Of a DNA stretch of 64,000 nucleotides, positions 9,227 to 64,000 are shown piece after piece. The notes below the pieces were generated by a model that worked only from the letters and a program-made list of their open reading frames with translations, searched no databases and was not told the origin of the DNA. Made by a program: the position numbers and the translations under genes. This stretch comes from an uncultured Gemmatimonadota bacterium (lineage in GTDB: Bacteria; JAAXHH01): assembly GCA_951812955.1 (NCBI GenBank), contig OX638340.1:1984001-2048000 (forward strand), in the 5' to 3' direction. How positions within the stretch are numbered: the stretch's first letter is position 1; each line of letters starts with the position of its first letter.

Positions 9227-9234
9227 GTATCCTC

Positions 9235-13288: not shown

Positions 13289-13357
13289 AAGAAGGCAATC
13301 AATCAGGACAGGATGTTTCGTGCAGGTTATTGTTCCGAGATGGATTCCGGTCCACGC

Positions 13358-17759: not shown

Positions 17760-18472
17760 AAATGCGGCCCCTCTGTTTTATTCGTCCTTCGCAATGGTAA
17801 TTTAGTTCATACTAACGTAATATACACCACTGTATTGTCAAGATTTCAGATTTAAATCGAGTTTATTCCTAAATTCCCGACTAATACATTATGGCGTTTG
17901 TATCGCCTTTATTTTCGCCAATCACTGCACACGTGTACATTCAGAATTTAACTGGAAGCGCATCTCGGGTCAATATTAACCAGCTATACGGCTGATCTGA
18001 ATGTACGACTGATCGGTGCGAACGGTGTGGTGGGCTTTCACCATGCACAATACTGGTCCAGGTTGCACCGTAATTAAACTAGTAACCGGTCTGCCCCGAC
18101 GAGGCGCCACGGGGCCGTTACCGGTTTGCACTGCGAAGATAAAGCAGCACCGGAGTTCCGGTCTGCTCTTCGATGCATTTAGGCGTGTACCATCTACCGC
18201 CTCAAAAAGTACAGATTGAACGCTGTTGTGTCCGCGTCGGCCGTGAATGGAACAGGGTTCGATCCCAATATCCCGTCAAGTCGAGTCAACCATCGGCCAT
18301 TGTATCCTTGAGCTGGCGGAGCGGCAACCAGGTTGTCCATTCGCAGGCTCAGGATAGCGGAGTTCTCTTCCCCGGAGATCCCGGGAATACATCCGTGATG
18401 GATACATCAGACGCGCCTGATCGGCCCTGTGCGTTCAGGCGCCTTCAGTGGAAAGGCAGCTACTTTGAAACC

Positions 18473-19180
18473 ATGAACACGCAATCAAAAAGCCCAGGAG
18501 ACGTCAATCTGATACACGCCTGCCTTGAGGGTCGATCAGATGCGCAGAGTCAACTCTACAATCTTTACTTCACACAGGACAAGCCTGTTCACTTCTGGGT
18601 ATACCAGAAAGCATACTGGATTCCAGCAGGTGAAAAGGAGGATATCCTGAATGATATCTACATCGCGGTCATTCAAAGCCTGCCCCAGTTCGAATTTCGC
18701 AGTGCATTGGGCACCTATATTACCCGCATTGCAAAGATCAAGTGCCTGGACGCAATGCCTTCTCGGCTAGGCGTCGCCCGGGGGAAGGGGATCAAGTTCG
18801 TCGATATCGACTGGTTCGCATCGAACAACGAGTCAGGGTTTCAGATCGAAGACACGGATCCCAACAACAGACCGGACCGGTATTTGAGACAAAGGGAAGA
18901 AGAAGAACTGGTTTTCCTGTTGCATACGGCCCTGAAGTACTTTACGGGACAGCGATGCAGGAATGTCCTCTACATGTACGTCAAAGAACTCAGAGGCGAA
19001 ATGAGCAGGGAGGACATTGCGGAATCGCTCGGAGTACCGGTTAAACGCATGGGACAGATGATCTACGACTGCATGTATCGGCTTCGCCGTAAGGTACAAA
19101 GTAGATTTCGAGATTACGAACATTTTGCCAATTGCGTATGTGAAGGTATTCAACGTCCCAAACCCAATAACAAGGAGTAG
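18473..19180 (+). CDS. ECF-type (sigma70 family) RNA polymerase sigma factor, about 235 aa, in a low-GC islet
   Basis: Region 2 (ILNDIYIAVIQSLPQFEFRSALGTYITRIAKIKCLDAMP) and region 4 HTH (MSREDIAESLGVPVKRMGQMIYDCMYRLRRK). Alternative upstream starts at 18407 or 18173. GC about 48% versus about 65% in the flanks. Confidence 0.7.
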   Translation: MNTQSKSPGDVNLIHACLEGRSDAQSQLYNLYFTQDKPVHFWVYQKAYWIPAGEKEDILNDIYIAVIQSLPQFEFRSALGTYITRIAKIKCLDAMPSRLGVARGKGIKFVDIDWFASNNESGFQIEDTDPNNRPDRYLRQREEEELVFLLHTALKYFTGQRCRNVLYMYVKELRGEMSREDIAESLGVPVKRMGQMIYDCMYRLRRKVQSRFRDYEHFANCVCEGIQRPKPNNKE

Positions 19181-19182
19181 CC

Positions 19183-19869
19183 ATGCATCAGCGAGTTGCG
19201 GGGCGCGGCAACTTCGACAGTTTGCCGGATCGTACTCAGATCGCTGACCTCCTGCGAAAATACTGTGAGCTGCTGGTTTCTTCATGTCCTACCTCGGAAA
19301 CACTGTTGGTATTTCATGAAGATCCGAATCAGCTTCCCACATGCGAGAGAAAGACCCTGGGAGGGCACCTTGGAATCTGTCTCGACTGCAGGGACAAACT
19401 TCGATGGCTGGAGGAATCTGAAGCTTCGTCCTATACCGATTCCATCGCACGTGTAATCTGGTATATGCTCAATGTACACCATCCATCCGAGGTGGCAGCC
19501 TCAAAGTACTTCTCATCCGCCAGGAGTGCAGGCAATCCCGACTCGCTTTCCACACAGAATTTGCAACCGGATGCTGCAAAAACGGCCACAACCCGCAAGA
19601 CTTCGGCGCCTTTTTTCGCCAGCGGGGATGGAGCGTTGTGTGGGGAAATCCATCAGGACAGGAATCAACGGGTGTATTTAAGGATTTTTCGGCTGCCCAG
19701 GTCGTTTCAGTGGCATGCCCTGCATATTCGAGCAATAACGTTTGACCGTCGCGTACTGGTGAGCAGGTCCAGGACCATATCGGGACCGAAATTCCCGATC
19801 GATCATCCTCCTCGCATTACGCCCGGTGACATGGACAAGGTCGAACTCGGTCTGATCCCGCTGCGTTGA
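19183..19869 (+). CDS. Putative zinc-binding (ZAS-type HxxxCxxC) anti-sigma factor, 228 aa
   Basis: Its ATG is 3 nt after the sigma stop, so the two are translationally coupled. The N-terminal domain contains C-x7-H-x3-C-x2-C (CERKTLGGHLGICLDC), the ZAS motif. No TM segment. Confidence 0.5.
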   Translation: MHQRVAGRGNFDSLPDRTQIADLLRKYCELLVSSCPTSETLLVFHEDPNQLPTCERKTLGGHLGICLDCRDKLRWLEESEASSYTDSIARVIWYMLNVHHPSEVAASKYFSSARSAGNPDSLSTQNLQPDAAKTATTRKTSAPFFASGDGALCGEIHQDRNQRVYLRIFRLPRSFQWHALHIRAITFDRRVLVSRSRTISGPKFPIDHPPRITPGDMDKVELGLIPLR

Positions 19870-19879
19870 GCGGGATCAG
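19852..19879 (+). terminator. Hairpin overlapping the anti-sigma stop codon (10-bp stem, 8-nt loop); possible terminator
   Basis: ctgatcccgc-tgcgttga-gcgggatcag. The downstream tract is only weakly T-rich. Confidence 0.25.
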
Positions 19880-20099
19880 CGCCGTTCCGGTGTATTCGAC
19901 CGGATTCCACTGGTTGTTTGCGGTACGTAACCCAGGCAATAAGATGTTGACAATCGACTGGGGGCGAGTACGTTACGAAGTATCTGAATGATGCGCGAAG
20001 CAGGCTTCGCGCATATACGGAATTGGAGGAATACCGGTACCTTCAAACCGGCCGGGTCGATGATCCCGCCATGGTACCGTCCATGAAGGAACCAACTGC

Positions 20100-21272
20100 A
20101 TGGAGATGGTTTATCCGAGGAGGAAAACGCGGGAAGTCCGCGTAGGAAACATCACGATCGGCGGCCAGCATCCCATTGTCGTGCAGTCGATGATCACGGA
20201 GAACACGCGGGACGTCGCAGCGTGTGTGGAAGCGATCATCCGATTGCATGAACTGGGATGTGAAATCGTACGAGTGACCACACCTACGCTCGCGGACGCC
20301 CACAGCCTGCGGGAAATCAAGCATACCCTCGTTCTGAATGGTGTGGACGTGCCCCTGGTAGCGGATGTTCATCACCAGGGAACCCGAATAGCCGAGGAAG
20401 TCGCCAGGTCTGTAGACAAGGTACGTATCAACCCCGGCCTGTTCGTATTCCAGCGTCTGGCAGATTCCATCGAATACTCACCCGAGGAATTCGAGGCCGC
20501 GAGACAAAAGGTGGCCGATGATCTGGCCCCCGTAATCAAGGTCTGCCGGGAGCGGGACATCGCCATGCGCATCGGTGTGAACCACGGATCCCTTTCGGAC
20601 CGCATGACCGTGACATACGGAGACACGCCAGAGGGCATGGTGGAATCCGCGCTGGAATTCATTCGAATTTGCGAGTCGCACGACTACAGAAACCTGATCG
20701 TATCGCTTAAAGCGTCCCGCGTGCCCGTCATGATTCAGGCCAACCGCCTCATGGCCGGCCGTATGGACGAAGAGGGGATGGACTATCCGCTGCACCTGGG
20801 TGTCACGGAGGCCGGTGACGGCGAGTATGCCCGGGTCAAGTCGACCTCCGGAATAGGCACCCTGCTGGCAGAAGGTCTCGGCGACACCATCCGGGTATCG
20901 CTCGCCGAGGATCCCGCCAAAGAAATCCCGGTCTGTTACGATATTCTCCAGTCTCTGGGCCTGCGACGTACCAAGGTGGAGTTTATCGCATGTCCTTCCT
21001 GCGGACGAACCAAATTCAACCTGGAAAACGTGCTTGCGGAGGTCAAGGCGGCCACCGACCATCTCGCGGGTCTCGACATCGCCGTAATGGGATGCATCGT
21101 CAACGGCCCCGGAGAGATGGCCGATGCCGATTACGGGTATGTCGGACGCGCCAACGGGATTATCTCCCTCTACCGCGGGCGTGACTGCGTCAAGATGAGT
21201 GTTCCGCAGGAACGGGGTGTCGAGGAACTGGTCGACCTGATCAAGTCGGATGACCGTTGGGTAGATCCTTGA
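20100..21272 (+). CDS. ispG: 4-hydroxy-3-methylbut-2-en-1-yl diphosphate synthase (flavodoxin), 390 aa
   Basis: [25 protein letters not shown] and C-terminal CPSCGR Fe-S cluster cysteines. Canonical IspG/GcpE. Confidence 0.9.
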
Positions 21273-35195: not shown

Positions 35196-35229
35196 CTTCC
35201 TACACCCCGGCCTTTCTACACCCCCGCCA
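35196..35229. repeat. 16-17-nt tandem duplication (GCCTTYCTACACCCCG) including the stop codon of the sugar ABC ATPase gene
   Basis: gccttcctacaccccg gcctttctacacccccg. The second copy carries the CTA (TAG) stop of the minus-strand ATPase gene. Confidence 0.55.
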
Positions 35230-36715
35230 TCATTCGCATGACTGTGCCCTGGTCCGCATCCTCGCGGGAAAGTTCACCCGCCACGCGACCTGCACGCAGC
35301 ACCATGATCCGCGTCGAAAGGTTGAGCACTTCCGGCAATTCGCTCGACACGAGCACGATGGCCGTGCCCTCATGGGCCAACTGGTCGATCAGGGCGTGTA
35401 TTTCCGACTTGGCGCCCACGTCCACGCCCCGGGTGGGTTCGTCGATCAGGAGCACCGGGCATCGCGCGGCCAGCCACTTGGCGAGGACAACCTTCTGCTG
35501 ATTGCCTCCGGACAGGCCCGCCGTGTTATACCGGACATCGTCCGGCCGCACCGATAGCCGCTTTACGTACTCGTCAGCCAAATCTTCCTCCCCTTTGCCT
35601 CGTATCCATCCGAAATTGGAACGGTGCGCCAGCGTGGGCAGACCGATGTTCTGGTCCACGCGAAGGGTAAGGACGAGGCCGAATCGTTTCCGGTCTTCGG
35701 GCACAAGCCCGATTCCGTTTCGCATCGCGTCGATCGGATGCCGGATGCTCACCGGCCGGCCGGCGACACGTAAGTGCCCTGTAACGTTGGGATCCAGCCC
35801 GAAAACGGCCTGCAGCACTTCGGTCCGCCCGGCGCCGACCAGGCCGGCCAGGGCGAGTACTTCCCCGGACCGCACCGAGAATGAGACGTTCTCAAACTTT
35901 CCGGGACTTGTAAGGCTGTCCACGGCCAGCATCTCGCCGCCGGATTCGGTGTCGACGTGGGATGGGAAGTAGGCCTCGTAGGTGCGGCCTATCATGAGAT
36001 TGATCAGCGTGGCCCGGTCGAGCTCGGCGACCGGGCGGGTAGTCACGTGCCGCCCATCGCGTAGCACGGTCACGACGTCGCACAGGCGGAAGATTTCGTC
36101 CAGGTCGTGGGAGATGTAGATCGACGTCACACCCTTCGACTTGAGATGACGGATGTTCTCCCGCAGCCGTTTCGCTTCCACGTGCGACAGACTGCTGGTC
36201 GGCTCGTCGAAGACGATCACGCGGGCGCCGCTGCCCAGGGCCGCCGCGATCTGCACCAGTTGCTGCTGGGCGACGGGCAGGTCGCCGATGGACGTTCCCA
36301 CGTCCATGTCGGCGTCAACTGCCTCCAGCATGCGACGGGCCCGTTCTTCCATCGACCGGTCGGAGACGAACCCGCCCCTGGCCGGCAGTGTACCCAGGCA
36401 GAGGTTCTCGGCGACAGACAGGTTCTCGCAGAAAACGAGTTCCTGGTGGACCATCCCGATGCCCATGTCAAGGGCATCCCGCGGTTCGATCAGCTGTACG
36501 GGACGACCGTCGATTCGGATCTGTCCGCCGTCGTGATCGTAGATGCCGGTCAGGATCCGACCCAGCGTACTCTTGCCGGCGCCGTTTTCGCCGACCACGG
36601 CGTGGCAGGTACCCGCTTCGATGCCGAAGGTAACGTCGTCGAGCGCCGTCACGCCCGGAAACCGCTTGGTGATCCGATCGAACTCGATATAGGGTTGCGC
36701 TGGATTGCGGTCCAT
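35216..36715 (-). CDS. Sugar ABC transporter ATP-binding protein with duplicated ABC domains (RbsA/MglA/XylG type), 499 aa
   Basis: Two Walker A sites (GENGAGKST, GLVGAGRTE) and two signature motifs (LSGGNQQKV). Confidence 0.85.
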   Translation of the reverse strand: MDRNPAQPYIEFDRITKRFPGVTALDDVTFGIEAGTCHAVVGENGAGKSTLGRILTGIYDHDGGQIRIDGRPVQLIEPRDALDMGIGMVHQELVFCENLSVAENLCLGTLPARGGFVSDRSMEERARRMLEAVDADMDVGTSIGDLPVAQQQLVQIAAALGSGARVIVFDEPTSSLSHVEAKRLRENIRHLKSKGVTSIYISHDLDEIFRLCDVVTVLRDGRHVTTRPVAELDRATLINLMIGRTYEAYFPSHVDTESGGEMLAVDSLTSPGKFENVSFSVRSGEVLALAGLVGAGRTEVLQAVFGLDPNVTGHLRVAGRPVSIRHPIDAMRNGIGLVPEDRKRFGLVLTLRVDQNIGLPTLAHRSNFGWIRGKGEEDLADEYVKRLSVRPDDVRYNTAGLSGGNQQKVVLAKWLAARCPVLLIDEPTRGVDVGAKSEIHALIDQLAHEGTAIVLVSSELPEVLNLSTRIMVLRAGRVAGELSREDADQGTVMRMMAGV

Positions 36716-41576: not shown

Positions 41577-43127
41577 TCAAGGTGATTCAAGCCGGAAATC
41601 CAGACTGGCCTGCAGGGAAGGTACATCCCTGTCCAGGCCATCTTCATCCTTCGAGACCGACTGGCCATCTCCGACGGGCTGAAGATCGATATGGACCCTG
41701 ACCTGGCGGTCCTCGATACTGAACGAGGAATAGGACAGGTCCTGAGGGAGGATTTTCAATCGGCAGTCGAAGATCCGGTTTTCGGTAATTTCGGAGAGTT
41801 CAATCGTGGGCGAAGTCACTACCCGCACGATCTGGTCAATTTCCATTTCCCGGCCGGTTATGGGTACCGAGGGCGGATCAACGGTGACCCGCACGATTTC
41901 CAGGCCCTCCGGCAATTTGCCCGCCAGTTCGTGATCGATCATGATCCGTCTGTTCACGATTCGATCGGACCTGATGGTGAGGCTTCTCGGATCGATCGAG
42001 GTGGCGTCGACCCCGAAAGGCAATTCTACATTTGCTTCCGTGAGCGGCATGGTGTGGGTCCCGGGTTCAATATCGTCCAGATCGACCATGACGCGTACTT
42101 GGTCCGACGTCAGGGTTGAAATACTGCCCTGTGGGCCCCGAACCCTTACGTTCACCTCGCTGGTCGAATTGCTGATCAACTCGATATTGGTCGGAATGTT
42201 CTGAAATTCCAACGCGGCTGTTATGGCTATTTCGGAGGTGTGCTGGCCGATCAGGGTGAACCACAACAGGCAGGAAACCCCGATCGAGGCCAATTTGGCG
42301 GTGAGGCTGCTGCGATTGAGCCGGAATCCCGACCGGAGCGCGAAGATCTTCGCCATGGCCTCCCTCAGCGACGGCCTGCTTCGTGGTATCTCGATCGGCA
42401 GCAACGATTTCTCCAGCGTCTGCCAGAGTTTTTCGCGGTCGGCCACGGCGGTGATATCACCGTTGGACGCCACGGAAACCTCGCCGCTCTCTTCGGACAC
42501 CACCACGCAAAATGTATCGCCGAGTTCTGAAACCCCCAGTGCCGCCCGGTGCCGCGTGCCGTACCGGGGCGGGAGATGGTCCCTGGACGAAAGCGGCAGG
42601 TAGGTGCCGGCTTCGACCACACGGTCCTTCTTCACGATAATCGCGCCATCGTGTATTGGCGAGGCGGGATGAAAGATGCTGACGATCAGTTCCTGGCTTA
42701 CGAGACTGTCGAGTTTGATGCCGTGCTGCACGGCGCCGGTAATCCCGGTCGCCCTGGGGAAGACCAGCAGGCCGCCGATGCGCTTCTCGGACAGTTCGAA
42801 ACAGGCCTCGGTGATCTCCTTCAGAATGCGACGGGAGACCGGGTTGTTCTTGAACCTGAAGATTACCAGGGGACTCACTCTCTCCAGCAGTTGCCTGATC
42901 TCAGGCTGGAAGACCACGATGATCAGTAGGAGAATAACACCGAGGAGGTACTGCAGAATCTGGGTGGTAAGGAGGAGTCCGCTCCAGTTCGCGATACTGT
43001 AGAGGATACCCAGACCGCCGAGACCGATCAGGATATGATAGGCCCGCGTGCCCTCCAGCCACATGTAAAGGCTGTAGATCAACGCCGCTATGATGAAAAT
43101 ATCCAGCAGGTTGACTAGATCAAACAT
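41577..43127 (-). CDS. cdaA: Diadenylate cyclase CdaA fused to a CdaR-like TM helix plus YbbR-like domains, 516 aa
   Basis: Three N-terminal TMs, DAC domain (DGAIIV, TRHRAALG), a fourth TM (LASIGVSCLLWFTLIG), then two YbbR-like beta-rich repeats (VNVRVRG...VDLDDIEPG...; VRVTVDPPSVPITG...). Single uninterrupted ORF. Confidence 0.75.
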   Translation of the reverse strand: MFDLVNLLDIFIIAALIYSLYMWLEGTRAYHILIGLGGLGILYSIANWSGLLLTTQILQYLLGVILLLIIVVFQPEIRQLLERVSPLVIFRFKNNPVSRRILKEITEACFELSEKRIGGLLVFPRATGITGAVQHGIKLDSLVSQELIVSIFHPASPIHDGAIIVKKDRVVEAGTYLPLSSRDHLPPRYGTRHRAALGVSELGDTFCVVVSEESGEVSVASNGDITAVADREKLWQTLEKSLLPIEIPRSRPSLREAMAKIFALRSGFRLNRSSLTAKLASIGVSCLLWFTLIGQHTSEIAITAALEFQNIPTNIELISNSTSEVNVRVRGPQGSISTLTSDQVRVMVDLDDIEPGTHTMPLTEANVELPFGVDATSIDPRSLTIRSDRIVNRRIMIDHELAGKLPEGLEIVRVTVDPPSVPITGREMEIDQIVRVVTSPTIELSEITENRIFDCRLKILPQDLSYSSFSIEDRQVRVHIDLQPVGDGQSVSKDEDGLDRDVPSLQASLDFRLESP

Positions 43128-45916: not shown

Positions 45917-47002
45917 TTATCCCGGTTTCCCGATCACGACGACCCGGGATGGATCGCATGACAATCGGATCGGCGCACCGGGACCGGCAAGTCGCTGGCC
46001 GGGACGATGGTCAACCAGCTTCACCAGCGTGCCGTCGTCCAACTGGACCGAATACTGCTCGTGGTCTCCAAGATAGACGGTCTGCCGGACGACGCCGGAT
46101 AGCACGTTTTCTTCCTCGCCGCCGGTGGGGTCCGGTCTCGAAACACGGATGGCCTCGGGCCGGATGGAGCAGACCACCTCGTCTCCCGGCGACAGGTCCT
46201 CAGCGGGTTCGATCGTCGAATGGAGTATGCCGACCGGGGTCTCAACGGCCAGTGGCATGTCCAACCGCGTCAACCTTCCGGCCACGAAATTCGTCTCCCC
46301 GATGAAATCCGCCACGAATGCGTTCGCGGGCCGGTCGTAGATCGAACGCGGTTCACCGGTCTGGGCGACGGCCCCCGTATCCATCACGGCCACACGGTCC
46401 GCCATGGAGAGGGCCTCCTTCTGATCGTGGGTCACGTAGATCATCGTCGTGGCGGTCTCATCGTGAATACGCCGGATCTCATCGCGCATTTCCAGGCGAA
46501 GCCGGGCGTCCAGGTTGGACAGCGGCTCGTCCAGCAGCACCACGTCGGGGCGGATCACGAGGGCGCGGGCAAGCGCCACACGCTGCTGCTGGCCGCCGGA
46601 CAGCTGGTTCGGCGACCGCTCCCCGTAGCGTTCCATCCGCACCATCCTCAGCGCTTCGGCGACGCGGTCGTTCTGTTCGGAAGGCGGCACTTTGCGCAGG
46701 ACGAGTCCGTAGGCCACGTTCTCCCGGACGGTCATATGCGGCCAGAGCGCATAATTCTGAAACACCATGCCCGTGTTTCTCCGGTGGGGCGGTCTGCGCG
46801 TCACCTCCTGACCGTCGAACAGGATGCTGCCCGCATCTGGTGCATAGAACCCGGCGATCAGTCTCAGGAGGGTCGTCTTGCCGCAGCCGGATGGGCCCAG
46901 AAGAAAGAACAGTTCACCTCGCGCGATCTCCAGAGATACATCGTCAACCGCCGTCACGTCACCGAATTTCCGGGTGATTCCCTGCAGTGTAAGACTGACC
47001 AT
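45917..47002 (-). CDS. ABC transporter ATP-binding protein (PotA/FbpC type with C-terminal TOBE-like domain), about 361 aa
   Basis: Walker A (GPSGCGKTT), signature (LSGGQQQRVALARAL), Walker B (LLDEPLSNLD). Start at MVSLTLQG; the ORF-track start at 47050 is a possible alternative. Confidence 0.8.
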   Translation of the reverse strand: MVSLTLQGITRKFGDVTAVDDVSLEIARGELFFLLGPSGCGKTTLLRLIAGFYAPDAGSILFDGQEVTRRPPHRRNTGMVFQNYALWPHMTVRENVAYGLVLRKVPPSEQNDRVAEALRMVRMERYGERSPNQLSGGQQQRVALARALVIRPDVVLLDEPLSNLDARLRLEMRDEIRRIHDETATTMIYVTHDQKEALSMADRVAVMDTGAVAQTGEPRSIYDRPANAFVADFIGETNFVAGRLTRLDMPLAVETPVGILHSTIEPAEDLSPGDEVVCSIRPEAIRVSRPDPTGGEEENVLSGVVRQTVYLGDHEQYSVQLDDGTLVKLVDHRPGQRLAGPGAPIRLSCDPSRVVVIGKPG

Positions 47003-47111
47003 AATTGGTTTCTCAAGATATGAAATTACGTTCAGGGTATGAAAAAACACGCACCCGTCCGCGCTGATGCGACGCGCCGTACGGGACCGTACGAAGGCGG
47101 GGCCATGATCC

Positions 47112-53384: not shown

Positions 53385-55430
53385 ATGACGAAGACCAGAC
53401 AGCGAAACGAGAAGCAGCGGGACCGGCGGTCCGCCGTACCCCGCCAGGGCCGCGGCAACCGGCAGCACGCGCCGCGCCGGACCCGGACGATCGTCATGTG
53501 GGTGCTCCTGGCCCTGCTGTCGGTGGTGCTGGTCCAGTTCTTCAGCCGGAATCGTTCCGACGGGCTGGAAATCGGATACTCCACGTTCCGGAACCACCTG
53601 GCCAATGGGAACGTCCTGAACGTGACGATGCTCGAAAAGACCATCGTCGGCGAATTCAGAAACGGAGTCAGTACCCCGGTCGCCGGCAACCGGGAATCCC
53701 TCGAGACACGGTTCAAAGTCGAGATTCCCTTCGAAGACCCCGACCTGGTCGACGAACTGGTGCGACAGAACGTAACGATTACCGCCCGTCCGAAGTCGGC
53801 CCCGTGGTACACCCACCTGTTGACCTGGCTGCCGCTGTTCCTCATTATCGGCCTGTGGATCCTCATCTTCCGCCGGATGCAGGGCGGGCAGAAGGGGCTC
53901 TTTTCCATGGGCAAGAGCCAGGCCAGGCTCACCAGCGAGCGGGAGGGCGTAAAGTTCGGCGAAGTGGCCGGCGTCGAAGAGGCGAAGCGCGACCTCCGGG
54001 AAGTCGTGGAGTTCCTCAAGCATCCCGACAAGTTCAGGCGGTTCGGCGCACGCCTGCCGAAAGGCGTACTCCTGCTGGGACCGCCGGGTACGGGCAAGAC
54101 CCTCCTGGCACGCGCGGTCGCCGGTGAAGCGGGCGTACCGTTCTTCACCATGAGCGGCGCTGATTTCATGGAGATGTTCGTCGGAGTCGGCGCCTCCCGG
54201 GTGCGGGATCTGTTCAAGCAGGCCAAGGAAAACGCCCCGTGCATCATCTTCATCGACGAACTTGACGCCGTGGGCCGTCACCGCGGCGCGGGCCTGGGCG
54301 GGGGCCACGACGAACGGGAGCAGACCCTGAACCAGATGCTCGTGGAAATGGACGGTTTCGAACCCAACAGCGGGGTGGTCCTGATCGCCGCCACGAACCG
54401 GCCCGATGTGTTGGACCCGGCGCTGCTCCGTCCCGGACGGTTCGACCGGCACGTCACCGTGGACCGCCCGGACGTCAATGGGCGCGAGCAGATCCTGGAC
54501 ATCAAGGCCAGGGACAAGCCCCTGGCGGATTGTGTTGATTTGAAGACCATGGCCAGGCTTACGCCGGGCATGTCGGGCGCGGACCTGGAAAACATCGTAA
54601 ACGAGGCGGCCCTGCTTGCCGCGAGGGAAGATCACAAGCAAATCACCATGAAGGATCTCGAACGTTCCAGGGATCGCTTCGTCATGGGTTCGGAACACCA
54701 GTTGATCATGTCGGAGGAAGAACGCAGAACCGTCGCGTACCACGAAAGCGGCCACGCCGTGACCGCCGCACTGATCCCGGAGGTCGACTCCCCGCACTGC
54801 GTCACCATCATTCCTCGTGGACAAGCGCTGGGGACTACCTACTCCATTCCCGAGGAAGACCAGTATCTGTATTCGGAAGCCTGGTGCCGGGGGCAGATCG
54901 CCTGCCTGCTGGCCGGACAGGTCGCCGAACGCATCGGGGTCGGCGACACGTTCAACGGGGCCGGAGACGACATAAAGCGCGCCACGGTACTGGCGCGCCA
55001 CATGGTCTGCGGCTGGGGGATGGGCGAACTGGGGCCCCTTGCCCTTGGCAACCCTGAAGGGGAGGTCTTCCTGGGCCGGGAGCTCACCCGGAAACGGGAT
55101 TACAGCAACAGGACGGCCGTGAAGGTCGATGAGGAAATAAGGAAAATCATGGATGCCTGCCGGCAGCGTGCGGAAGCCATCCTTTCGAAACGGGAGGACG
55201 CCCTGCACCGGATGGCCGAGGCCCTCCTCGAGCATGAAACGCTGGACCGGAACCAGATGGAGAGGGTGATCGAAGGGAAACCGCTGGATTCGACCGTGAA
55301 GCGTGAAGTCATACCACGGCAGGACGCCGGGGATGAAACCGTAATTAAAGAGGAGGCACAGACCGACGATGCCGAAACGCCAGCTCACGCGCCGTTCAAA
55401 GAACCTCCTCTGGCCGCCCCGGGAGTCTGA
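53385..55430 (+). CDS. ftsH: ATP-dependent zinc metalloprotease FtsH, 681 aa
   Basis: Two N-terminal TMs. AAA Walker A (GPPGTGKT), SRH region. HEXXH (HESGHAV) zinc site. Confidence 0.9.
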
Positions 55431-55432
55431 CC

Positions 55433-56287
55433 GTGCCTGACGAACTGGTCGTCGAAGGCGACGGGTTCCAGTGGGATTGCTCGAAACGCACGCGGATCAT
55501 GGGGGTCCTGAACGTGACGCCGGATTCCTTCTATGACGGCGGTCGCTACTGGGACCCGTATACTGCGGTGCGACACGGCCAGCGATTGGCCGAGGAAGGC
55601 GCGGACATCATTGACGTCGGCGGCGAATCCACGCGGCCGGGCGCGGAGCCGGTCGAGCTGGAGGAGGAACTGCGCAGGGTCGTCCCCGTCATCGAACGGC
55701 TGAAGGACCGGACCGGGCAGCCGGTGTCCATCGATACCCGGAAAGCCGAAGTAGCCCGCAGGGCCATCTGCGCCGGGGCCCGGATGGTAAACGACGTCAG
55801 CGGGATGACGGCCGATCCTGAAATGGTCGGGACGATTGCCTCCGCCGGAGTACCCGTAGTGATTATGCACACGGCGGGCAACCCTTCGGACATGCAACGG
55901 AATCCCGGCTACCGGGATACCGTCGGCGAAGTCATCGATTGGCTGGGCGCGCGCATAGAACACGCCGTGGCGCACGGCATCCGAAGATCAAGGATCATTA
56001 TCGATCCGGGCATTGGTTTCGGCAAACGCCTCAGCGACAATCTGCTCCTGATCCAGTCTCTGGCGTCCTTTCAAAAACTGAATTGTCCCATCCTGGTCGG
56101 TCCTTCGAGGAAGTCCTTCATCGGCAGCGTACTCGACGCGGAGAAAGTCGACCGGTTGGAGGGTACGGCGGCGGCGGTCGCGCTGAGCGTAGCCAACGGC
56201 GCCAGTATCATCCGGGTCCACGACGTCATGGAAATGCGACGAGTGGTCCGCATGGCCGACGCGATCTGCAGGGCGCGACAGGAATAA
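55433..56287 (+). CDS. folP: Dihydropteroate synthase, 284 aa
   Basis: Pterin-binding TIM barrel (GVLNVTPDSFYDGG, IIDVGGESTRPG). Starts 3 nt after the ftsH stop. Confidence 0.85.
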   Translation: MPDELVVEGDGFQWDCSKRTRIMGVLNVTPDSFYDGGRYWDPYTAVRHGQRLAEEGADIIDVGGESTRPGAEPVELEEELRRVVPVIERLKDRTGQPVSIDTRKAEVARRAICAGARMVNDVSGMTADPEMVGTIASAGVPVVIMHTAGNPSDMQRNPGYRDTVGEVIDWLGARIEHAVAHGIRRSRIIIDPGIGFGKRLSDNLLLIQSLASFQKLNCPILVGPSRKSFIGSVLDAEKVDRLEGTAAAVALSVANGASIIRVHDVMEMRRVVRMADAICRARQE

Positions 56288-56321
56288 GGCGTTCCCCAAA
56301 ACAGGTATCCATCTAACCACC

Positions 56322-57239
56322 ATGATCATGAATATCGTTATCCTGGGTTCCGGAGGCGCCATTCCAACCCTGAAGCGAAACCTGCCCTCCGTCGCCGTAC
56401 AGTGCGAAGGGCGCGTTTTCCTTTTCGACTGCGGCGAGGGTACCCAGACGCAGATGGTCCGTGCAAAGCTGCCCCTGAGCAAGATCGAGCGGATCTATAT
56501 TTCCCACCTGCATGGCGACCATGTCATGGGCCTGCCCGGCCTGTTGATGACGATGGGACAGATACCTCGGGAACGGGCGCTCTACATCGATGGACCGCCG
56601 GGCATCTCTGACTTCGTGGAAGGCAACCGGCGATTCCTGGGCTACCAGTGCCCCTTTCCCGTTATCGTCACGGAGCACAGGGGCGGAACGGTATCGGAGG
56701 ACGACACCATTTTCGTCGACGCCGTGCCCGCGGATCATAGTTGCTTTACACTGGCCTTCGCCTTGCAGGAAAAGGAGCGCCCCGGCCAGTTTCAGGTTGA
56801 AGAAGCGAGACGACTGGGCGTACCCCCCGGACCGTTCTATGGACGGCTGCAGGCGGGCGAAACCGTTAAACTGGGGGATGGACGTCTAATCGAGCCCGGA
56901 CAGGTACTGGGTCCCACCCGGCGGGGACGGAAGATCGTGTATGCCACAGATACCCGGCCGTGCGACCAGGTAGTCTCGCTGGCCCTCGAGGCGGACGTGC
57001 TGATCCACGACGGCATGTTCAGCGACGACCTGCGGGCGCAGGCCCGCCAGAAGCACCACTCGACGGTCGTGCAGGCGGCCCGTATCGCCCGGCGAGCAAA
57101 AGTCGGCACCCTGGTGCTGACCCATATCAGTTCCCGCTACATGCAGGACGGACCGCTGGCCGCCGAGGCGCGCAAGATCTTCCCCGCCGCGCGGGTCGCG
57201 CGGGATCTCATGGAATTCAACGTGCCCATGTACAAGTGA
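56322..57239 (+). CDS. rnz: Ribonuclease Z (tRNA 3' endonuclease, metallo-beta-lactamase fold), 305 aa
   Basis: HxHxDH motif (HLHGDHVMG) and short-form RNase Z profile. Confidence 0.8.
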   Translation: MIMNIVILGSGGAIPTLKRNLPSVAVQCEGRVFLFDCGEGTQTQMVRAKLPLSKIERIYISHLHGDHVMGLPGLLMTMGQIPRERALYIDGPPGISDFVEGNRRFLGYQCPFPVIVTEHRGGTVSEDDTIFVDAVPADHSCFTLAFALQEKERPGQFQVEEARRLGVPPGPFYGRLQAGETVKLGDGRLIEPGQVLGPTRRGRKIVYATDTRPCDQVVSLALEADVLIHDGMFSDDLRAQARQKHHSTVVQAARIARRAKVGTLVLTHISSRYMQDGPLAAEARKIFPAARVARDLMEFNVPMYK

Positions 57240-57281
57240 GGCCGGCCCGACAGGCATAGTGAGGCCGGCCCGGCAGACTAT
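57236..57281. repeat. 23-nt tandem duplication (GTGAGGCCGGCCCGRCAGRCTAT) beginning on the rnz stop codon
   Basis: gtgaggccggcccgacaggcata gtgaggccggcccggcagactat. The first copy contains the rnz TGA. Each copy contains the GGCCGGCC palindrome. Confidence 0.6.
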
Positions 57282-57361
57282 GCAATACCGCCTGAGACGC
57301 TTCCGCCCGTTACCGGGGAACCGTGCCGCCGGGACTATGCGGGATGGGTCTATTCCGCGGG

Positions 57362-58756
57362 TCAGTCCGCGGCTTTCCGCGGGACGGCTTCCCAGGCCGC
57401 CAGTCCCCCGACAAGGTCCATCACGTCCGTGAAACCGTGCCGCTTCAGTATGCTGGCCGCCATGGCGGAACGATAGCCACCGGCGCACTGGACGACCACC
57501 GTGGTGTCGGTGGGGATCTCGACCAGGCGCTCCTCGAGGTGATTCAGGGGCACGTGCAGACTGTCCGGGATGGACTTGTCCCCGCGCTCCTGCCCGGAGC
57601 GGATATCGATCACCACGGGCGGGCATTCCATTTCCAGCCTGTCTCTCAGCGCCGCCGCGGTGATGCGCTCGGTCCGGCTCAACAGATCGGGACGTTCCTC
57701 CAGCGCGTGCATGCCGCCCTCGAGATATCCCGCGATGTGGTCGAATCCGATGCGGCCCAGCCGCAGGGCGGATTCCTCCTCGGCACCGGTTTCCGTGACC
57801 AGGACGATCGGTTTGTCCCGCCTGAGCAGCGTACCCGCCCAACTGGCGTACTGTCCCCCGAGCCCGATGTTGATGCTGCCCCCCAGGTGCGCGCCCTCGT
57901 AATCCGCGGCGTCGCGCGTGTCGAGCACCTGCGCGCCGTCTCCCGCCTTGCGCAGCACATCGTCCAGCGAAAGGGGATTCAGGCCCCTTTTCAGCAGATG
58001 GTCCAGCGTATCGTGTTCCTGTGCGTTAAACGCGGCGTCGTAAGTGAAGTACGACGGCGCCTCCGGCTGGTCTGTCGTGATCAGGCGGGTAAAGGTATCC
58101 CGGTCCATCGGCTGCAGGGCGTAGTTGTATTTCTTCTGATCGCCCATGGTGGAAACCGTATCCGTACTCAGGTTCTTCCCGCACAGCGAACCGGCGCCGT
58201 GGGCGGGATAGACGAGCGTATCGTCGACGGTAGCCGGAAGCAGCTTCCCGTGAAGGGATTCGTAAAGCAGGTTGGCGAGATCGGAAGCCTTCCATCCGAG
58301 CGCGGCTCTCAGATCCGGACGGCCCACGTCGCCGATGAACAGGGTGTCCCCGGTCAGCGCGGCGTAGGGCGCGGTCTCCCCGTCGGGATCGAAGACCAGG
58401 ATGCAGACGGATTCGGGAGAATGTCCGGGCGTTTCCAGGAATTCGAGCCGGACCGTGCCGAGGTTCATGCTTTCGCCGTCCCTCATGGGCTCGAAGGCGT
58501 AGTCCGCCTCGGCCCGCGCGCCCAGGTGGATCTCGGCGCCCGTACGGTCCCTGAGTTCGAGGTGGCCAGCGGCGAAGTCCGCGTGGAAGTGGGTCAGGAA
58601 GACATGGCCGATTGTCATGTTCCGGGCTTCGGCCTCATCGATATACTGGCCGATGTCGCGCTGGGGATCCACGACCGCCGCGACGCCCGATGGTTCGTCC
58701 CCCAGAAAATAGGACGCGTGAGCCAGACATCCCAGATAGTATTGCTTAAGTATCAT
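57362..58756 (-). CDS. MBL-fold metallo-hydrolase fused to rhodanese domains (persulfide dioxygenase/CstB-like), 464 aa
   Basis: N-terminal metallo-beta-lactamase motif (LTHFHADFAAGH...ETPGHSPES). Two C-terminal rhodanese-like modules with a Cys loop (QCAGGYRS). Confidence 0.7.
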   Translation of the reverse strand: MILKQYYLGCLAHASYFLGDEPSGVAAVVDPQRDIGQYIDEAEARNMTIGHVFLTHFHADFAAGHLELRDRTGAEIHLGARAEADYAFEPMRDGESMNLGTVRLEFLETPGHSPESVCILVFDPDGETAPYAALTGDTLFIGDVGRPDLRAALGWKASDLANLLYESLHGKLLPATVDDTLVYPAHGAGSLCGKNLSTDTVSTMGDQKKYNYALQPMDRDTFTRLITTDQPEAPSYFTYDAAFNAQEHDTLDHLLKRGLNPLSLDDVLRKAGDGAQVLDTRDAADYEGAHLGGSINIGLGGQYASWAGTLLRRDKPIVLVTETGAEEESALRLGRIGFDHIAGYLEGGMHALEERPDLLSRTERITAAALRDRLEMECPPVVIDIRSGQERGDKSIPDSLHVPLNHLEERLVEIPTDTTVVVQCAGGYRSAMAASILKRHGFTDVMDLVGGLAAWEAVPRKAAD

Positions 58757-58826
58757 GTCCGCCTCCTGAATCCTCTCCCCGCCGCGGTTCGCCGTATGCC
58801 CTTGCTCCGTAGCCTTCGCACGCGTC

Positions 58827-60539
58827 CTACCGCCCGGGAATGGCCGATCCTGATTCGTCCCCTGCGATGTACATCGTGATGGAAGAGCTCATCACCTGGT
58901 CACCCCGCCACGTTCTGAATCCCGACGCGTTCGGCTCCAGCGCCGAGCCTTTCAGGTAGGGTTTCCATACCTGCGCACGCTGCCTGTGCCACAGAAACAC
59001 GCCGGCCACATCCTCCACCAGGAGCCGTTCCGCTTCCCTGTACAGGGCAATGCGTCGATCAGGGTCCCTGACCTCGGCGTCGGCCGCGGTCATCAGGCCA
59101 TCGAAGGCGGCGTTGTTCCAGTTGTGCCGGCCGTTGGACCGCCAGAGCCCGAGGAGGTTGCTCGGATCCACGAAATCGAACTCGTAGGGCACCAGGCCGA
59201 AGGTTAACGTATGGTTGTTCAGGCCGTCCATGAAGACCTTGTTCTCCACGTTGCGCACTTCGACCTCCATATTGAGGTTGCGATTCAGCATCGCCTGCAG
59301 TCCCTCGGCCGCGTCGCGGTGCATGGCAATCTCGTTGCGCAGCCACATGTCCAGTTCGGGGAGCCCGCGACCATCCGGATAACCGGCCTCCGCGAGCAGT
59401 TCCCGGGCGCGCGCCGGGTCGTACCCCTGGTCCTCGGCGTATATCCCGTCCGAATAGGCCGGAAAACCCGGGGGCAGCATGGCGTAGCCGGGTATGGCAA
59501 AGCCCCTGAGCGCGGAATTGCAAATCGCGGCCCGATCGATGGCGAGACTGATGGCCAGGCGTACTCTCCGGTCATTGAACGGTGGTTTCGTGACGTCGAA
59601 GAACAGGTAGTGGGTCCAGAAATTGGGCCAGGTATGCACCTGGTCGCTCAGGTTGTCGTCGGAAAGCAACCGGGCCAGCTCTGCCTGGTTCTCCACGTCG
59701 GTAATGTCGATTTCTCCGGCCTCATACGCCGGCAGCCGCGGGGGCGGCGTAGTCAGGTTAAACATCCTGTAGACCAGTTTTTCCAGGAAGGGTTTGTCGG
59801 CCCCGCGGTACATGGGATTGGCCTCGTAGATCATCCGTTCGCCCTTGGTCCATTCCGCCATGACGAACGGTCCCGAGGAAATACAGGTCTCCGGTCGGGT
59901 GGACCAGGTGTCACCGTGCTTCCTGACTGCGTGCTCGGGGGAAACCCAGGAATAGGTCAGCAGCAGGGGCATGTGGGGCGTGGGTTCCTCGGTGGCGACA
60001 TGCAGCGTGAGGTCGTCAGAAGCCCACACGCCGAGCGAGTCCACGGGCACTTTCCGGGCGACGACGGCCTGCCAATTCCGGATCGGCTGGTAGTACCACC
60101 CGAAGTCGTAGGCGTTTTCGGGATCGGCGCCACGGCGCAGGGAAAAGACGTAGTCGTGAGCAGTCAGCGGACGGCCGTCGCTCCATTGCTGTCCCGGACG
60201 CAGATGGAAGGTCCACACCAGTCCGTCATCGGACATCTCCCACCGTTCCGCGGCGCCGCCCCGCAACACGAAATTCCGGTTCGTGCGCGTCAACGGCTCG
60301 GCGATGATGTATTTTCCTTCCGCACCCTTATAAACCGTGCGGAACCACTCGTTGTAGGGCCGGGATTCGGAGAATTTGTACAGGACCTGCTGACCGGGAG
60401 GCAGGGCGTCAGCGGGCAACGGCACCCCGATGGAATTGACGTAACGCGGTCCGTTGTCGGGGAGGAGGGGATCGATCAGGCCGTAAGCCGACCAGATAAT
60501 CCCCGCGACGAGAAAGAAGCAAATCGAAGGACGTAGCAT
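58827..60539 (-). CDS. ABC transporter substrate-binding protein, family 5 (oligopeptide/dipeptide-type), about 570 aa
   Basis: SBP_bac_5 profile. Signal peptide. Paralogous to the 32577-34328 SBP. Start at MLRPSIC; the ORF-track start 60563 is possible. Confidence 0.75.
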   Translation of the reverse strand: MLRPSICFFLVAGIIWSAYGLIDPLLPDNGPRYVNSIGVPLPADALPPGQQVLYKFSESRPYNEWFRTVYKGAEGKYIIAEPLTRTNRNFVLRGGAAERWEMSDDGLVWTFHLRPGQQWSDGRPLTAHDYVFSLRRGADPENAYDFGWYYQPIRNWQAVVARKVPVDSLGVWASDDLTLHVATEEPTPHMPLLLTYSWVSPEHAVRKHGDTWSTRPETCISSGPFVMAEWTKGERMIYEANPMYRGADKPFLEKLVYRMFNLTTPPPRLPAYEAGEIDITDVENQAELARLLSDDNLSDQVHTWPNFWTHYLFFDVTKPPFNDRRVRLAISLAIDRAAICNSALRGFAIPGYAMLPPGFPAYSDGIYAEDQGYDPARARELLAEAGYPDGRGLPELDMWLRNEIAMHRDAAEGLQAMLNRNLNMEVEVRNVENKVFMDGLNNHTLTFGLVPYEFDFVDPSNLLGLWRSNGRHNWNNAAFDGLMTAADAEVRDPDRRIALYREAERLLVEDVAGVFLWHRQRAQVWKPYLKGSALEPNASGFRTWRGDQVMSSSITMYIAGDESGSAIPGR

Positions 60540-60590
60540 CGATATGCCGGTATGTTTTCGCATGATGCACCTGCCATGGATCGGAATTCC

Positions 60591-61454
60591 CTACTCGTTC
60601 ATTCTCGGGTCGAGAGCGTCGCGGAGGCCGTCGCCGATGAGTGAAAATCCAAGCATGACCAGGGCGATCATGAAAACCGGGAAGAGGGCGAGATGCCAGT
60701 AGTAGATCACATTGGGCAGGTGGCTGCTGACCATCTGTCCCCAACTCGGAGTGGGCGGATTAATGCCCAGGCCGAGGAAACTCAGTCCCGCTTCTGCGAA
60801 GATGGCCTGGGGTATGCCCATGGCCAGGCCGACGATGATGGGGCTGAGTGCGTTCGGCAGCATGTGGCGCACTATGGTGTGCACGTTGGAAGCGCCCATG
60901 GACCGGGCGGCCCTGACGAAGTCGGACGCCCTAAGCGACAGGAACTGCGCGCGGACCAGGCGGCATACGCCCACCCAGCCGGTCACGCCGATGGCGAACA
61001 GCACGTTGCTCAAGCCGCTTCCCAGCCAGGCCATGATCAGGATGGCGAACAGCAGGCTGGGAAAGACCGACATGACGTCCACCAGGCGCATGACGATGAA
61101 ATCGGCTTTGCCCCCCTTGAACCCGGCGATGGCCCCGAGCGGCACCCCGATCAGCAGGGAGATCATCTGCGCGACGAATCCCACGATGAGCGAGATCCGG
61201 GCGCCGTACACGATCCGGCTGAAGTAATCCCGGCCGATGCTGTCCGTACCCATGGGGTGGGTCCAGGACGGGAACTGCCACGCCGCGTCGAAATTGGCCT
61301 CGGAATAATGGTACGGCGAGACCCACGGCGCGAAGATGGCCATGAACGAGATGACGATGATGATGACCCCCGCCACGACGGACAGCTTGTTCTTCATGTA
61401 GCGTCGCAGGGCGTCGCGCCAAAGGCCGCCTGTGGATTGAGTGATTTCCGTCAT
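60591..61454 (-). CDS. ABC transporter permease, OppC/DppC-like, 287 aa
   Basis: BPD_transp_1 with an N-terminal OppC-type segment and EAA loop. Confidence 0.8.
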   Translation of the reverse strand: MTEITQSTGGLWRDALRRYMKNKLSVVAGVIIIVISFMAIFAPWVSPYHYSEANFDAAWQFPSWTHPMGTDSIGRDYFSRIVYGARISLIVGFVAQMISLLIGVPLGAIAGFKGGKADFIVMRLVDVMSVFPSLLFAILIMAWLGSGLSNVLFAIGVTGWVGVCRLVRAQFLSLRASDFVRAARSMGASNVHTIVRHMLPNALSPIIVGLAMGIPQAIFAEAGLSFLGLGINPPTPSWGQMVSSHLPNVIYYWHLALFPVFMIALVMLGFSLIGDGLRDALDPRMNE

Positions 61455-61473
61455 AGTGCTGGTTTTCCGATTG

Positions 61474-62430
61474 CTAGTCTTTCGTTTTCTCCGTGGAGCG
61501 CCTTGCAGCGAGACGCTCGATGAGCAGTACGATCGCGCAGCCGGTGATGCCCAGGGCTACGGCCAGCAGGACTTCTTCCGATACCGAAGCGGGAAGGACG
61601 TTCTGCTGTATGAGGGGTTTAACCGCGCCCTGGCGGTCCGTGAACGTCTCCACCGTCTCCTTCCACGGCCAGATCTTCCGCAATGAACCGGCCATGAGGC
61701 CGATGAGGGCCGCAACGGTCAAGTCATGGTAGCGGCGCAACAGCCATCTGAGCACCCGCGCGAAAAAGATCAGTCCCAGGATTCCGCCGCACCCGAATAT
61801 GATGATGGGCAGGAAATCCCGCTCGACCACGGCATGAAGCATGTACTCGTACTTCCCCATAATGACCAGGATGAACGAACCGGAGATGCCGGGCAGGATC
61901 ATCGCGCAGATCGCGATGGTCCCGCTCAGGAACACGAACCATGCGGCCGTGGGGGTCTCGACGGGGACGGCGCCCACCAGTACGAAGGCTGCGGCCGCCG
62001 CCAGCAGCACCGCGAGTGCTTCCGTCGCGGTCCACGTGGTCACCTTCCTGCGCACGGTGAAGATCGAAGCGAGCACCAGTCCGAAGAAAAACGCCCACAC
62101 GTAGACGGGATGATGCGCGAGTGCCCACGCGAAAAATCGGGCCAGGCTGAATATGGCCACCATGATACCGGTGACGAGGGCGATCACGAACCGGTATGGG
62201 AATCTGTCGAGGGCCTCCGTGAACCGAAAGGAAACAAGCGAACGAAGGAACCTTGCGTTGACCGCGTGCACGGCGTCGAGCAGCTCTTCGTACACCCCCA
62301 GGATGAAGGCCATCGTTCCCCCGGACACTCCGGGGACGACATCGGCGACGCCCATGCAGAATCCTCGGGCGGTGATGCCCAAGTAGTCCTTGAACGTCCG
62401 TCTCGAACGCGATGAACCTTTTTCCATCAC
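61474..62430 (-). CDS. DUF368-family integral membrane protein (PopT-like putative polyprenyl-phosphate transporter family), 318 aa
   Basis: Internal two-fold repeat with the signature [21 protein letters not shown] and [20 protein letters not shown]. About 8-10 TM segments. ATG overlaps the OppB-like stop (ATGA). Confidence 0.65.
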
Positions 62431-63359
62431 TTGCTCCCGCGTGTGTAGCGGACCCTGGGATCCACGAGGGCATAGAGGATGTCCGTAATCAGATAGACGA
62501 TACCGATCAGCACCGCGACGAGCAGCGTCAGCGCCATGATCATGGGATAGTCCCGTTCGAAGATGCTGGTGACGAAGAACTGTCCGAGGCCCGGTATGCG
62601 GAAAATGCCTTCGACGAACAGCGACCCGGTCATTACGCCGGGCAGCATCGGACCCATGATGGTCAGCAGCGGGATCAGGGAGTTTTTCAGCACGTGTATA
62701 AACAGGACGCTACGCTCTTTAAGGCCCTTGGCGCGCGCCGTGCGCACGTAATCCATCCGCAGGTTCTCGAGCACGCTCGAACGGGTATAACGGGCGATGA
62801 TGGCCATGGGACCCAGGGCATAGACGATTACAGGCATGATCCAGGTCTCGGGTCCGCCCCATCCGCCCGTGGGCAGGATCCTCCAGATGGTCGCGAAGAT
62901 GACGATGAACAATATGGAAATGGCGAAACTGGGCACAGTGATCCCAAGCGTCGCGAGCATAGTGGTCCCATAGTCCATCCAGGTGTTCTGTCGTATCGCG
63001 GAAAGGATGCCCAGGAGGATGCCGAAGGAGAAGGCCACGGCGAGGCCCATGCCGCCCAGTTGCATGCTGATGGGCCAGGTCCGCGCGATCAGGTCCGTCA
63101 CCGTCTCGCCCGGACTTTGAAAGGGGATGCCGAAATCGAATTGCAGCGCGTTCCACATGTACCGCCCGTACTGCTCGTACAGGGGCCGGTCCAGGCCGTA
63201 CTTGCGCAGTATATTCGCCTTGGCCTCGGCCGACAGAGGCATCTTCTCCTCGTCGAACGGGCCGCCCGGAACCGCATGCATCAGACTGAAGGTGATGATC
63301 GTGACCAGAAACAGCACGCCGATCAAGCCCGCGATGCGGTATATGATGTATCGTATCAT
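62427..63359 (-). CDS. ABC transporter permease, OppB/DppB-like, 310 aa
   Basis: BPD_transp_1 with an OppB-type N-terminal TM and EAA loop. Confidence 0.8.
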
Positions 63360-63675
63360 AGGATCAGGTTTTCTAATGCGCCGCGGCGGTGATAGCGGGG
63401 CGACTCCGCCGGTTCGTGAAACGGGCGGGGTTACCGGCGGTCCAGCTTCAATAGTGCAAGCGGACGCGACGGGGTGTCAAGGGTTATTTGCCGGGTCCGG
63501 ACCGCGCCCCGACGCCGATCCGGCCAGGGAATCCACATGCCCTGGCGAGGTGCCAAAGGGTCCGGGTTCCACCCACGATTCCGCGGTCATCTACCCTTGA
63601 CACCCTCCGGGGCGTTTCACACATTAACCGACGAAATTCCACTTTACGGAATGGCGTGTACAAGGAGGACGCGAG

Positions 63676-64000
63676 CGTGCGGATTGTAGAAGTTTCCGCG
63701 CTGGTTCTGCGGCTGCCGGTAGTGACGGAGTCCTGTGACGGAACGCAGGATACCTGCCTGGTCAAAATCGAAACGGACGCGGGCATTACGGGTTGGGGAG
63801 AAGTCGATTCGTGTCCCACCGTGGTTAAGGCCATCATCGACGCGCCGCTGTCGCACCAGATCTGCAATGGCCTGGCCAACGCGCTGGCCGGTGCGGATCC
63901 CCTGGACATCGACGCGTGCACGTCACGGATGATGGAATCGGCCAATTACTACGGCCGGGTCGGTGTGGGCCGGCACGCCATGGCGGGGGTAAACCTGGCA
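63676..64000 (+). CDS. Enolase-superfamily (mandelate racemase/muconate lactonizing enzyme; ManD/sugar-acid dehydratase-like) protein, N-terminal fragment, runs off the window
   Basis: GTG start. VRIVEVSALVLRLP...DTCLVKIETDAGITGWGE matches the MR/MLE N-terminal capping domain. RBS AAGGAGG 8 nt upstream. Confidence 0.55.

Follow-up and report, generated by a model that had tools for sequence, protein, structure and literature searches.

Why should a gene for a putative polyprenyl-phosphate translocase lie between the two permease genes of a peptide importer? The question is raised by a 64,000-nucleotide (nt) stretch of DNA from an uncultured Gemmatimonadota bacterium (GenBank assembly GCA_951812955.1, contig OX638340.1, positions 1,984,001 to 2,048,000; hereafter the window), in which a DUF368 gene is embedded in an Opp/Dpp-type ATP-binding cassette (ABC) transporter operon. 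An earlier note on this DNA proposed either that the arrangement couples lipid-carrier recycling to import of peptides or muropeptides or that the DUF368 protein forms part of a transporter that lacks an ATPase. We found that all cases of DUF368 within opp operons go back to one insertion in one Gemmatimonadota clade, followed by vertical co-descent. The inserted gene probably encodes an ordinary DUF368 translocase that hitchhikes in the opp operon, with the two systems acting separately.

Organization of the operon

Gene identities were assigned from Pfam profile matches on the open reading frames (ORFs) of the window. Five closely packed ORFs occupy the minus strand from 57362 to 63359; from the first gene to the last, they and the spacer before oppC are as follows (SBP, substrate-binding protein; aa, amino acids).

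62427-63359, minus strand: OppB-like ABC permease, first gene of the operon (310 aa; PF00528 at 1.7e-37, and PF19300)
61474-62427, minus strand: gene for a putative polyprenyl-phosphate translocase of the DUF368 VCA0040/PopT type (317 aa; PF04018)
61455-61473, minus strand: 19-nt spacer between DUF368 and oppC, from the sequence; variable in relatives
60591-61454, minus strand: OppC-like ABC permease (287 aa; PF00528 and OppC_N, PF12911)
58827-60563, minus strand: family-5 SBP of the OppA/MppA class with an N-terminal hydrophobic anchor (578 aa; PF00496 at 4e-84)
57362-58756, minus strand: MBL fold plus two rhodanese domains, persulfide-dioxygenase-like (464 aa; PF00753 and PF00581)

The Pfam matches on four consecutive ORFs bear out the minus-strand order OppB, DUF368, OppC, family-5 SBP given in the earlier note, and the sequence bears out its 19-nt gap before oppC. 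Another 27 nt separate oppC from the SBP gene. The MBL-rhodanese gene had been described as convergent; it lies on the same strand as the SBP gene (57362-58756, minus), 70 nt downstream of it, and is probably part of the operon, as the last gene of the unit. The gene that does converge on the operon is an RNase Z-like ORF.

Both permeases look canonical. OppB aligns over its full length to the NCBIfam Opp3B and OppB models, with scores under their equivalog cut-offs, and OppC aligns over its full length to OppB/OppC-type models, the best being Opp4C and GsiD. An EAA-type cytoplasmic loop lies within the aligned BPD_transp_1 domain of each, read by eye in OppC as FVRAARSMGASNVHTIVRHMLPNALSPIIV; the EAA consensus motif marks the loop at which the ATPase docks.

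A single, old insertion in one clade

A survey of one genome per species, with an alignment of the DUF368 proteins of the clade as the query, yielded 80 loci. The order OppB-DUF368-OppC-SBP-MBL-rhodanese occurs in three of them: L009 (98% identity; labeled Gemmatimonadetes), L010 (85%), and L011 (79%). The genome survey that the earlier note had called for thus gives 3 of 80 species, all from one clade. In the remaining 77 loci the DUF368 protein is at most 57% identical and no opp gene lies beside its gene; a single one of them has oppBC about 5 kb from DUF368. Among the 77, the loci that are informatively labeled belong mostly to Chloroflexota, Desulfobacterota, Latescibacterota, and Bacteroidota. 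Additional loci came from a metagenome scan with OppB and from contig look-ups: L089 to L094, L096, L166, and the contig encoding P0032 are arranged as in the window, and L167 has the same arrangement plus a Uma2-family gene. Altogether, at least 15 independent assemblies share the arrangement, with DUF368 identities from 98% down to 59%, so it is not peculiar to this genome. Across the clade OppB is 87 to 99% identical, and OppC is 85 to 99% identical.

Two loci, L098 and L099, show the operon without the insertion: a divergent MR_MLE (enolase superfamily) gene is followed by OppB-OppC (12-nt gap)-SBP-MBL-rhodanese, with neither DUF368 nor an ATPase gene. In a neighbor-joining tree of concatenated OppB, OppC, and SBP (1206 columns, 200 bootstraps), the DUF368-bearing operons are monophyletic with 82.5% bootstrap support and L098 is their sister; the clade including L098 is separated from the outgroups with 100% support. 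A neighbor-joining tree of DUF368, computed without support values, also groups the opp-embedded proteins as monophyletic, with a matching branching order, and places L063, the sole other labeled Gemmatimonadota DUF368 in the sample, elsewhere.

Synonymous divergence (dS) between the window and four relatives (L010, L011, L090, and L091) is similar for all five genes, at 0.3 to 0.8. The GC content and third-position GC content of DUF368 are those of its neighbors, and a search for repeats flanking DUF368 as an insertion footprint found only short, chance-level ones. These three observations argue that the insertion is old, not recent. The comparative evidence is what a neutral or mildly useful single insertion, followed by vertical descent, would give.

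Where the gene came from is a separate matter. The nearest relatives outside the clade are Chloroflexota for both OppB and DUF368, and an old interphylum transfer of OppB/DUF368 is a possibility. Adjacency of DUF368 and FtsH was considered as the ancestral context and rejected, being lineage specific and present at only 4 of 87 loci; these are L007, L008, L014, and L016, where ftsH lies about 350 nt after DUF368 on the same strand (L014 and L016 are labeled Chloroflexota). The ftsH gene of the window (53385-55430) is 6 kb from DUF368 and on the opposite strand.

The DUF368 protein is full length and conserved

The family assignment made in the earlier note, DUF368 of the PopT-VCA0040 type, is correct by a hidden Markov model search: PF04018 matches at 302.9 bits (E value, 2.4e-90; gathering score, 26), with residues 26 to 269 covering profile positions 1 to 244 of 246. 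Among NCBIfam models the best is NF052564, the Vibrio cholerae VCA0040 type (336 bits versus a cut-off of 400; profile positions 1 to 302 of 303), whereas the PopT-type model NF052563 scores 120 bits versus a cut-off of 400. The protein is a full-length family member without an extra domain. An AlphaFold2 model is helical, with a mean pLDDT of 75.8; it gave no match with an E value below 0.1 against the PDB, and a sequence search found no solved homologue. The S. aureus PopT protein has a predicted transporter-like fold with an inverted repeat and re-entrant helices.

The DUF368 gene is intact and under purifying selection. About 90 columns are invariant among 17 DUF368 sequences of the clade, including the family-pattern motif ILPGISGS, and the ratio of nonsynonymous to synonymous divergence (dN/dS) between the window and the same four relatives is 0.16 to 0.21. 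The corresponding values are 0.03 to 0.05 for OppB, 0.03 to 0.07 for OppC, 0.10 to 0.15 for SBP, and 0.14 to 0.18 for MBL-rhodanese (SBP versus L098 was left out as an artefact of a mis-set start). DUF368 is therefore three to five times less constrained than the permeases; that is, its protein evolves faster.

Judging from its sequence, the DUF368 product is most likely an ordinary undecaprenyl-phosphate (C55-P) translocase. DUF368 proteins have been described as C55-P translocases that are important in alkaline, high-Na+ conditions (PMC9876793; bioRxiv 10.1101/2022.02.03.479048), a role that would fit a marine lineage. Alternatively, the protein might have changed its substrate and carry another amphipathic or anionic compound tied to the peptide or sulfur metabolism of the operon, as could be read from its faster evolution relative to its neighbors, its score under the NCBIfam equivalog cut-off, and its placement on a branch separate from L063, the other Gemmatimonadota DUF368 in the sample. 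We consider this exceedingly improbable: the roughly 90 positions invariant in the clade include the ILPGISGS family motif, a dN/dS near 0.2 is nothing unusual for a membrane protein, no extra domain is present, and the DUF368 papers examined describe polyprenyl phosphates only.

Junctions with the permease genes

The earlier note gave an ATGA overlap between oppB and DUF368. The junction actually reads aaGTGATGg, in which the ATG of DUF368 overlaps the TGA stop codon of OppB by one base (TGATG); we place the start there because translation from this ATG gives exactly the 317-aa sequence of a public protein, P0001. A TGATG or TAATG stop/start junction between OppB and DUF368 was found in eight loci. 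The DUF368/OppC junction is 9 to 211 nt long in relatives, with gaps of 120 to 210 nt in L094 and L096. In L167 it holds a Uma2-family gene (PF05685; 2112-2717), showing that this junction has taken a second, unrelated gene. DUF368 is likely cotranscribed with the permease genes, as the earlier note supposed, and in the window the TGATG junction probably couples its translation to that of oppB.

Shared transcription could be adaptive even if the proteins never meet: C55-P recycling might have to rise with the import of peptides, those derived from the cell wall being one example. The stop/start overlap in eight loci and the short gaps to OppC would be expected from such co-regulation, as would the persistence of the arrangement across DUF368 identities from 59 to 98%; an SBP of the OppA/MppA class would suit it as well. 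We nevertheless regard it as rather unlikely. The linkage has one evolutionary origin and is missing from 77 of 80 species, the sister lineage has the same operon without DUF368, and in L094, L096, and L167 the space between DUF368 and OppC has been widened to 120 to 210 nt or filled by an unrelated gene.

OppB-DUF368 pairs without the rest of the operon

In two groups of loci, L005/L006/L097 and L164/L165, OppB-DUF368 is followed by unrelated convergent genes, and OppC, SBP, and MBL-rhodanese are absent at the locus. The pairs lie at 9058-10939 (L005), 6636-8517 (L006), 927-2808 (L097), 7510-9578 (L164), and 977-3045 (L165). Their OppB proteins are 87 to 89% identical, with a dN/dS of 0.02 for L005. 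Dependence of DUF368 on the oppB promoter could explain why the pair was retained. A specific functional pairing of OppB with DUF368, by subunit association or obligatory coproduction, would likewise explain why the two genes stayed together after OppC and SBP left the locus, and would be a previously undescribed link between an ABC-type permease and the recycling of the lipid carrier; we consider it very unlikely, and nothing apart from the retained pair hints at a specific relationship between OppB and DUF368.

The genes downstream of the pair differ: one group has an amino-acid permease gene, the second has genes for an 814-aa unknown protein and PCMT. A hairpin comes after the stop codon of DUF368 in L005. 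Deeper-branching relatives carry, immediately upstream of OppB and in the same orientation, genes for CheW-domain, NuoF-like, and [FeFe]-hydrogenase-like proteins (P0032 contig; L005, 7433-9019; L164, 3474-7435; L166, 1555-5520), with CheW and hydrogenase fused in one ORF in L005. The window lacks these genes, and its OppB faces the enolase-superfamily gene directly.

An operon without ATPase genes

As the earlier note stated, the locus has neither OppD nor OppF. A six-frame motif scan of the window found no OppD/F; its only ABC ATPases, at 45917-47050 (TOBE_2) and 35216-36715 (duplicated sugar type), each sit in their own operons for other transporters. Within 10 kb on each side of the operon, six relatives (L010, L011, L092, L093, L094, and L096) gave no tblastn match to generic ABC ATPase probes; as a positive control, the probes detected the ATPases of L002. 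In L010, a Pfam scan covering 9 kb upstream found only sugar-acid catabolism and unrelated genes.

The order is OppB-OppC-SBP-ABC-ABC in outgroup operons whose OppB is 52 to 60% identical. In the nearest outgroup, L102 (OppB 65% identical), an ATPase-less B-C-A module lies directly upstream of SBP-OppB-OppC-OppD-OppF, with oligo_HPY domains; we consider this arrangement a plausible model for ATPase sharing. The whole L102 array (8099-20520, one strand) begins with two further permease genes, followed by OppB-OppC-SBP and then SBP-OppB-OppC-OppD-OppF. In another outgroup, L103, no ATPase gene was found within 4.5 kb after the SBP gene. Searching a protein database with the OppF of L102 returned none from the clade among the 120 matches listed, which are all close relatives of the query; those listed with a source name are all Chloroflexota (Anaerolineae, Caldilineae, and Thermoflexia). 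A literature search on shared ATPases in Opp systems gave nothing usable.

That DUF368 might be an accessory subunit of OppB/OppC, or a partner of OppB, which modifies or replaces ATPase-driven transport, is suggested by the position of its gene between both permease genes, by the lack of ATPase genes at the locus, and by the survival of OppB-DUF368 without OppC and SBP in L005/L006/L097 and L164/L165, where OppB is strongly constrained. This possibility, the second proposed in the earlier note, fares badly against the rest of the evidence, and we judge it extremely unlikely. The L098/L099 operon is ATPase-less without DUF368, so loss of the ATPase genes is independent of DUF368; L103, too, has none in the 4.5 kb examined. 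Both permeases align full length to canonical Opp models and keep the EAA-type loop. DUF368, for its part, is canonical and full length with no added domain, and it evolves three to five times faster than the permeases, with no sign of shared constraint. ABC importers are not known to function without nucleotide-binding domains. We therefore favor an importer powered by ATPases acting in trans, beside a translocase with which it likely has no physical link.

The neighboring genes and the muropeptide question

Three features flank the operon.

63360-63487, no strand assigned: divergent intergenic region, presumed promoter region of the operon (from the sequence)
63488-64000, plus strand: N-terminus of an MR_MLE, sugar-acid-dehydratase-like protein; boundary gene outside the unit (from the translation)
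56322-57239, plus strand: RNase Z-like ORF, convergent with the operon (ORF call)

The plus-strand ORF from 63488 confirms the divergent enolase-superfamily neighbor described earlier. A sigma-70 promoter and terminator scan of 57000-64000 found none above shuffled expectation, with no sigma-70 consensus match in 63360-63487, and an Rfam scan of 56000-64000 gave no match; for Gemmatimonadota, both scans are weak evidence.

A muropeptide substrate would give DUF368 and the importer a common theme, the cell wall. Comparison of the SBP with MppA and OppA, as the earlier note advised, did not support such a link: among solved structures, OppA comes closest to it at 216 to 217 bits, and MppA is next at 183 bits. 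Its nearest NCBIfam model is OppA, at 228 bits versus a cut-off of 947. We also considered whether the divergent enolase-superfamily gene could be the murein-peptide epimerase YcjG. This was rejected, since by bit scores it resembles a sugar-acid dehydratase: full-length MR_MLE orthologues in L010 and L005 score 172 to 176 bits for galactonate dehydratase and 45 to 46 bits for L-Ala-D/L-Glu epimerase. Neighbors of the L010 MR_MLE gene encode KDPG aldolase, a GHMP kinase, and a cupin. No murein-recycling genes, such as those for YcjG or MpaA, were found near the operon.

The conserved downstream partner of the importer is instead a sulfur enzyme. MBL-rhodanese is kept after SBP in L009 to L011, L089, L090, L094, L096, L098, L099, and the P0032 contig, and in the last of these a gene for a TauE sulfite exporter comes next. 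From this gene context, the importer may serve a sulfur-containing peptide, for example, glutathione. An SBP nearer OppA than MppA, the lack of murein-recycling enzymes nearby, and a conserved partner that is no cell-wall enzyme all count against co-regulation of C55-P recycling with import. The proposed coupling of lipid-carrier recycling with peptide or muropeptide uptake is thus left without independent support, given also its single origin and the 77 of 80 species in which the genes are unlinked.

Two further ORFs caught our attention. In the window, a 516-aa ORF at 41577-43127 (minus strand) combines a CdaA N-terminal transmembrane region, a DAC diadenylate cyclase domain, and YbbR (CdaR-type) repeats. 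CdaA-type cyclases and CdaR-type YbbR proteins are usually encoded by two separate genes, and the ORF may be either a genuine fusion of cyclase and regulator or an artefact of ORF calling. In L010, a 538-aa leucine-rich-repeat protein is encoded at 58-1674 (plus strand), about 7.4 kb upstream of the operon; eukaryote-like repeat proteins are common in sponge symbionts and would fit the suspected habitat.

Proposed history and significance

We propose that an oppB-oppC-oppA-(MBL-rhodanese) operon would first have shed the ATPase genes it once had. Once the L098-type lineage had branched off, one DUF368 insertion would then have entered the short oppB/oppC gap in the ancestor of an uncultured, apparently marine or sponge-associated Gemmatimonadota clade, and DUF368 and its neighbors would afterwards have been inherited vertically together. 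Presumably transcribed from the opp promoter, DUF368 would bring C55-P back to the cytoplasmic leaflet for use in making the cell envelope, while OppB/OppC and the SBP would take up an oligopeptide-like substrate, with OppD/F-type ATPases from elsewhere in the genome supplying the energy.

Several observations sit uneasily with this account. The ATPases that we assume to act in trans were not located, the evidence covering the locus only. The DUF368 protein does not reach an equivalog-level match (336 versus 400 bits), and its translocase activity is assigned by homology. OppB-DUF368 adjacency persists where OppC and SBP are gone, whereas a purely accidental passenger predicts otherwise. Finally, the stop/start overlap and short gaps have been kept across saturated synonymous divergence, which argues that selection at least tolerates, and may favor, co-expression.

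As an ordinary translocase hitchhiking in an importer operon, the case is of limited value: it offers a clean, datable example of operon hitchhiking, with a sister lineage that lacks the insertion and one relative that has a second, unrelated one. It also documents an Opp-type permease/SBP module without its own ATPase genes across a whole clade, and it is in line with a published proposal that translocases of the DUF368 family are beneficial in saline, alkaline habitats. Were DUF368 and the Opp permeases to cooperate after all, this would be a new type of ABC importer accessory subunit, and peptide uptake would be tied to recycling of the cell-wall lipid carrier by a regulatory link that is likewise new.

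Comparison with known systems

Like VCA0040 of Vibrio cholerae and PopT (SAOUHSC_00846) of Staphylococcus aureus, the DUF368 protein of the window matches PF04018 from end to end and is a polytopic helical protein of about 300 aa (PMC9876793; bioRxiv 10.1101/2022.02.03.479048). Unlike them, it falls under the equivalog cut-offs and is encoded inside an ABC importer operon, a context unreported for characterized members. Neighborhood analyses of DUF368 report linkage with AglB glycosylation clusters in archaea rather than with opp genes (bioRxiv 10.1101/2022.02.03.479048). Archaeal popT in these N-glycosylation clusters resembles our case in that a DUF368 gene is embedded among genes for another envelope process (bioRxiv 10.1101/2022.02.03.479048). 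The archaeal neighbors, however, use dolichol phosphate, so that the linkage is logical, and it recurs in many genomes; in the window, the neighbors form a peptide importer, in which no step involves a polyprenyl phosphate, and the linkage arose only once.

The importer shares OppB- and OppC-type permeases and an OppA/MppA-class SBP with OppABCDF/MppA of Escherichia coli and Salmonella (PepT family). It differs in its order, B-(DUF368)-C-A, in the lack of oppD and oppF at the locus, and in the MBL-rhodanese gene after the SBP gene. As a permease and SBP operon without an ATPase gene, it resembles the CUT1 sugar importers served by MsiK or MsmK, for which ATPase sharing is well documented.

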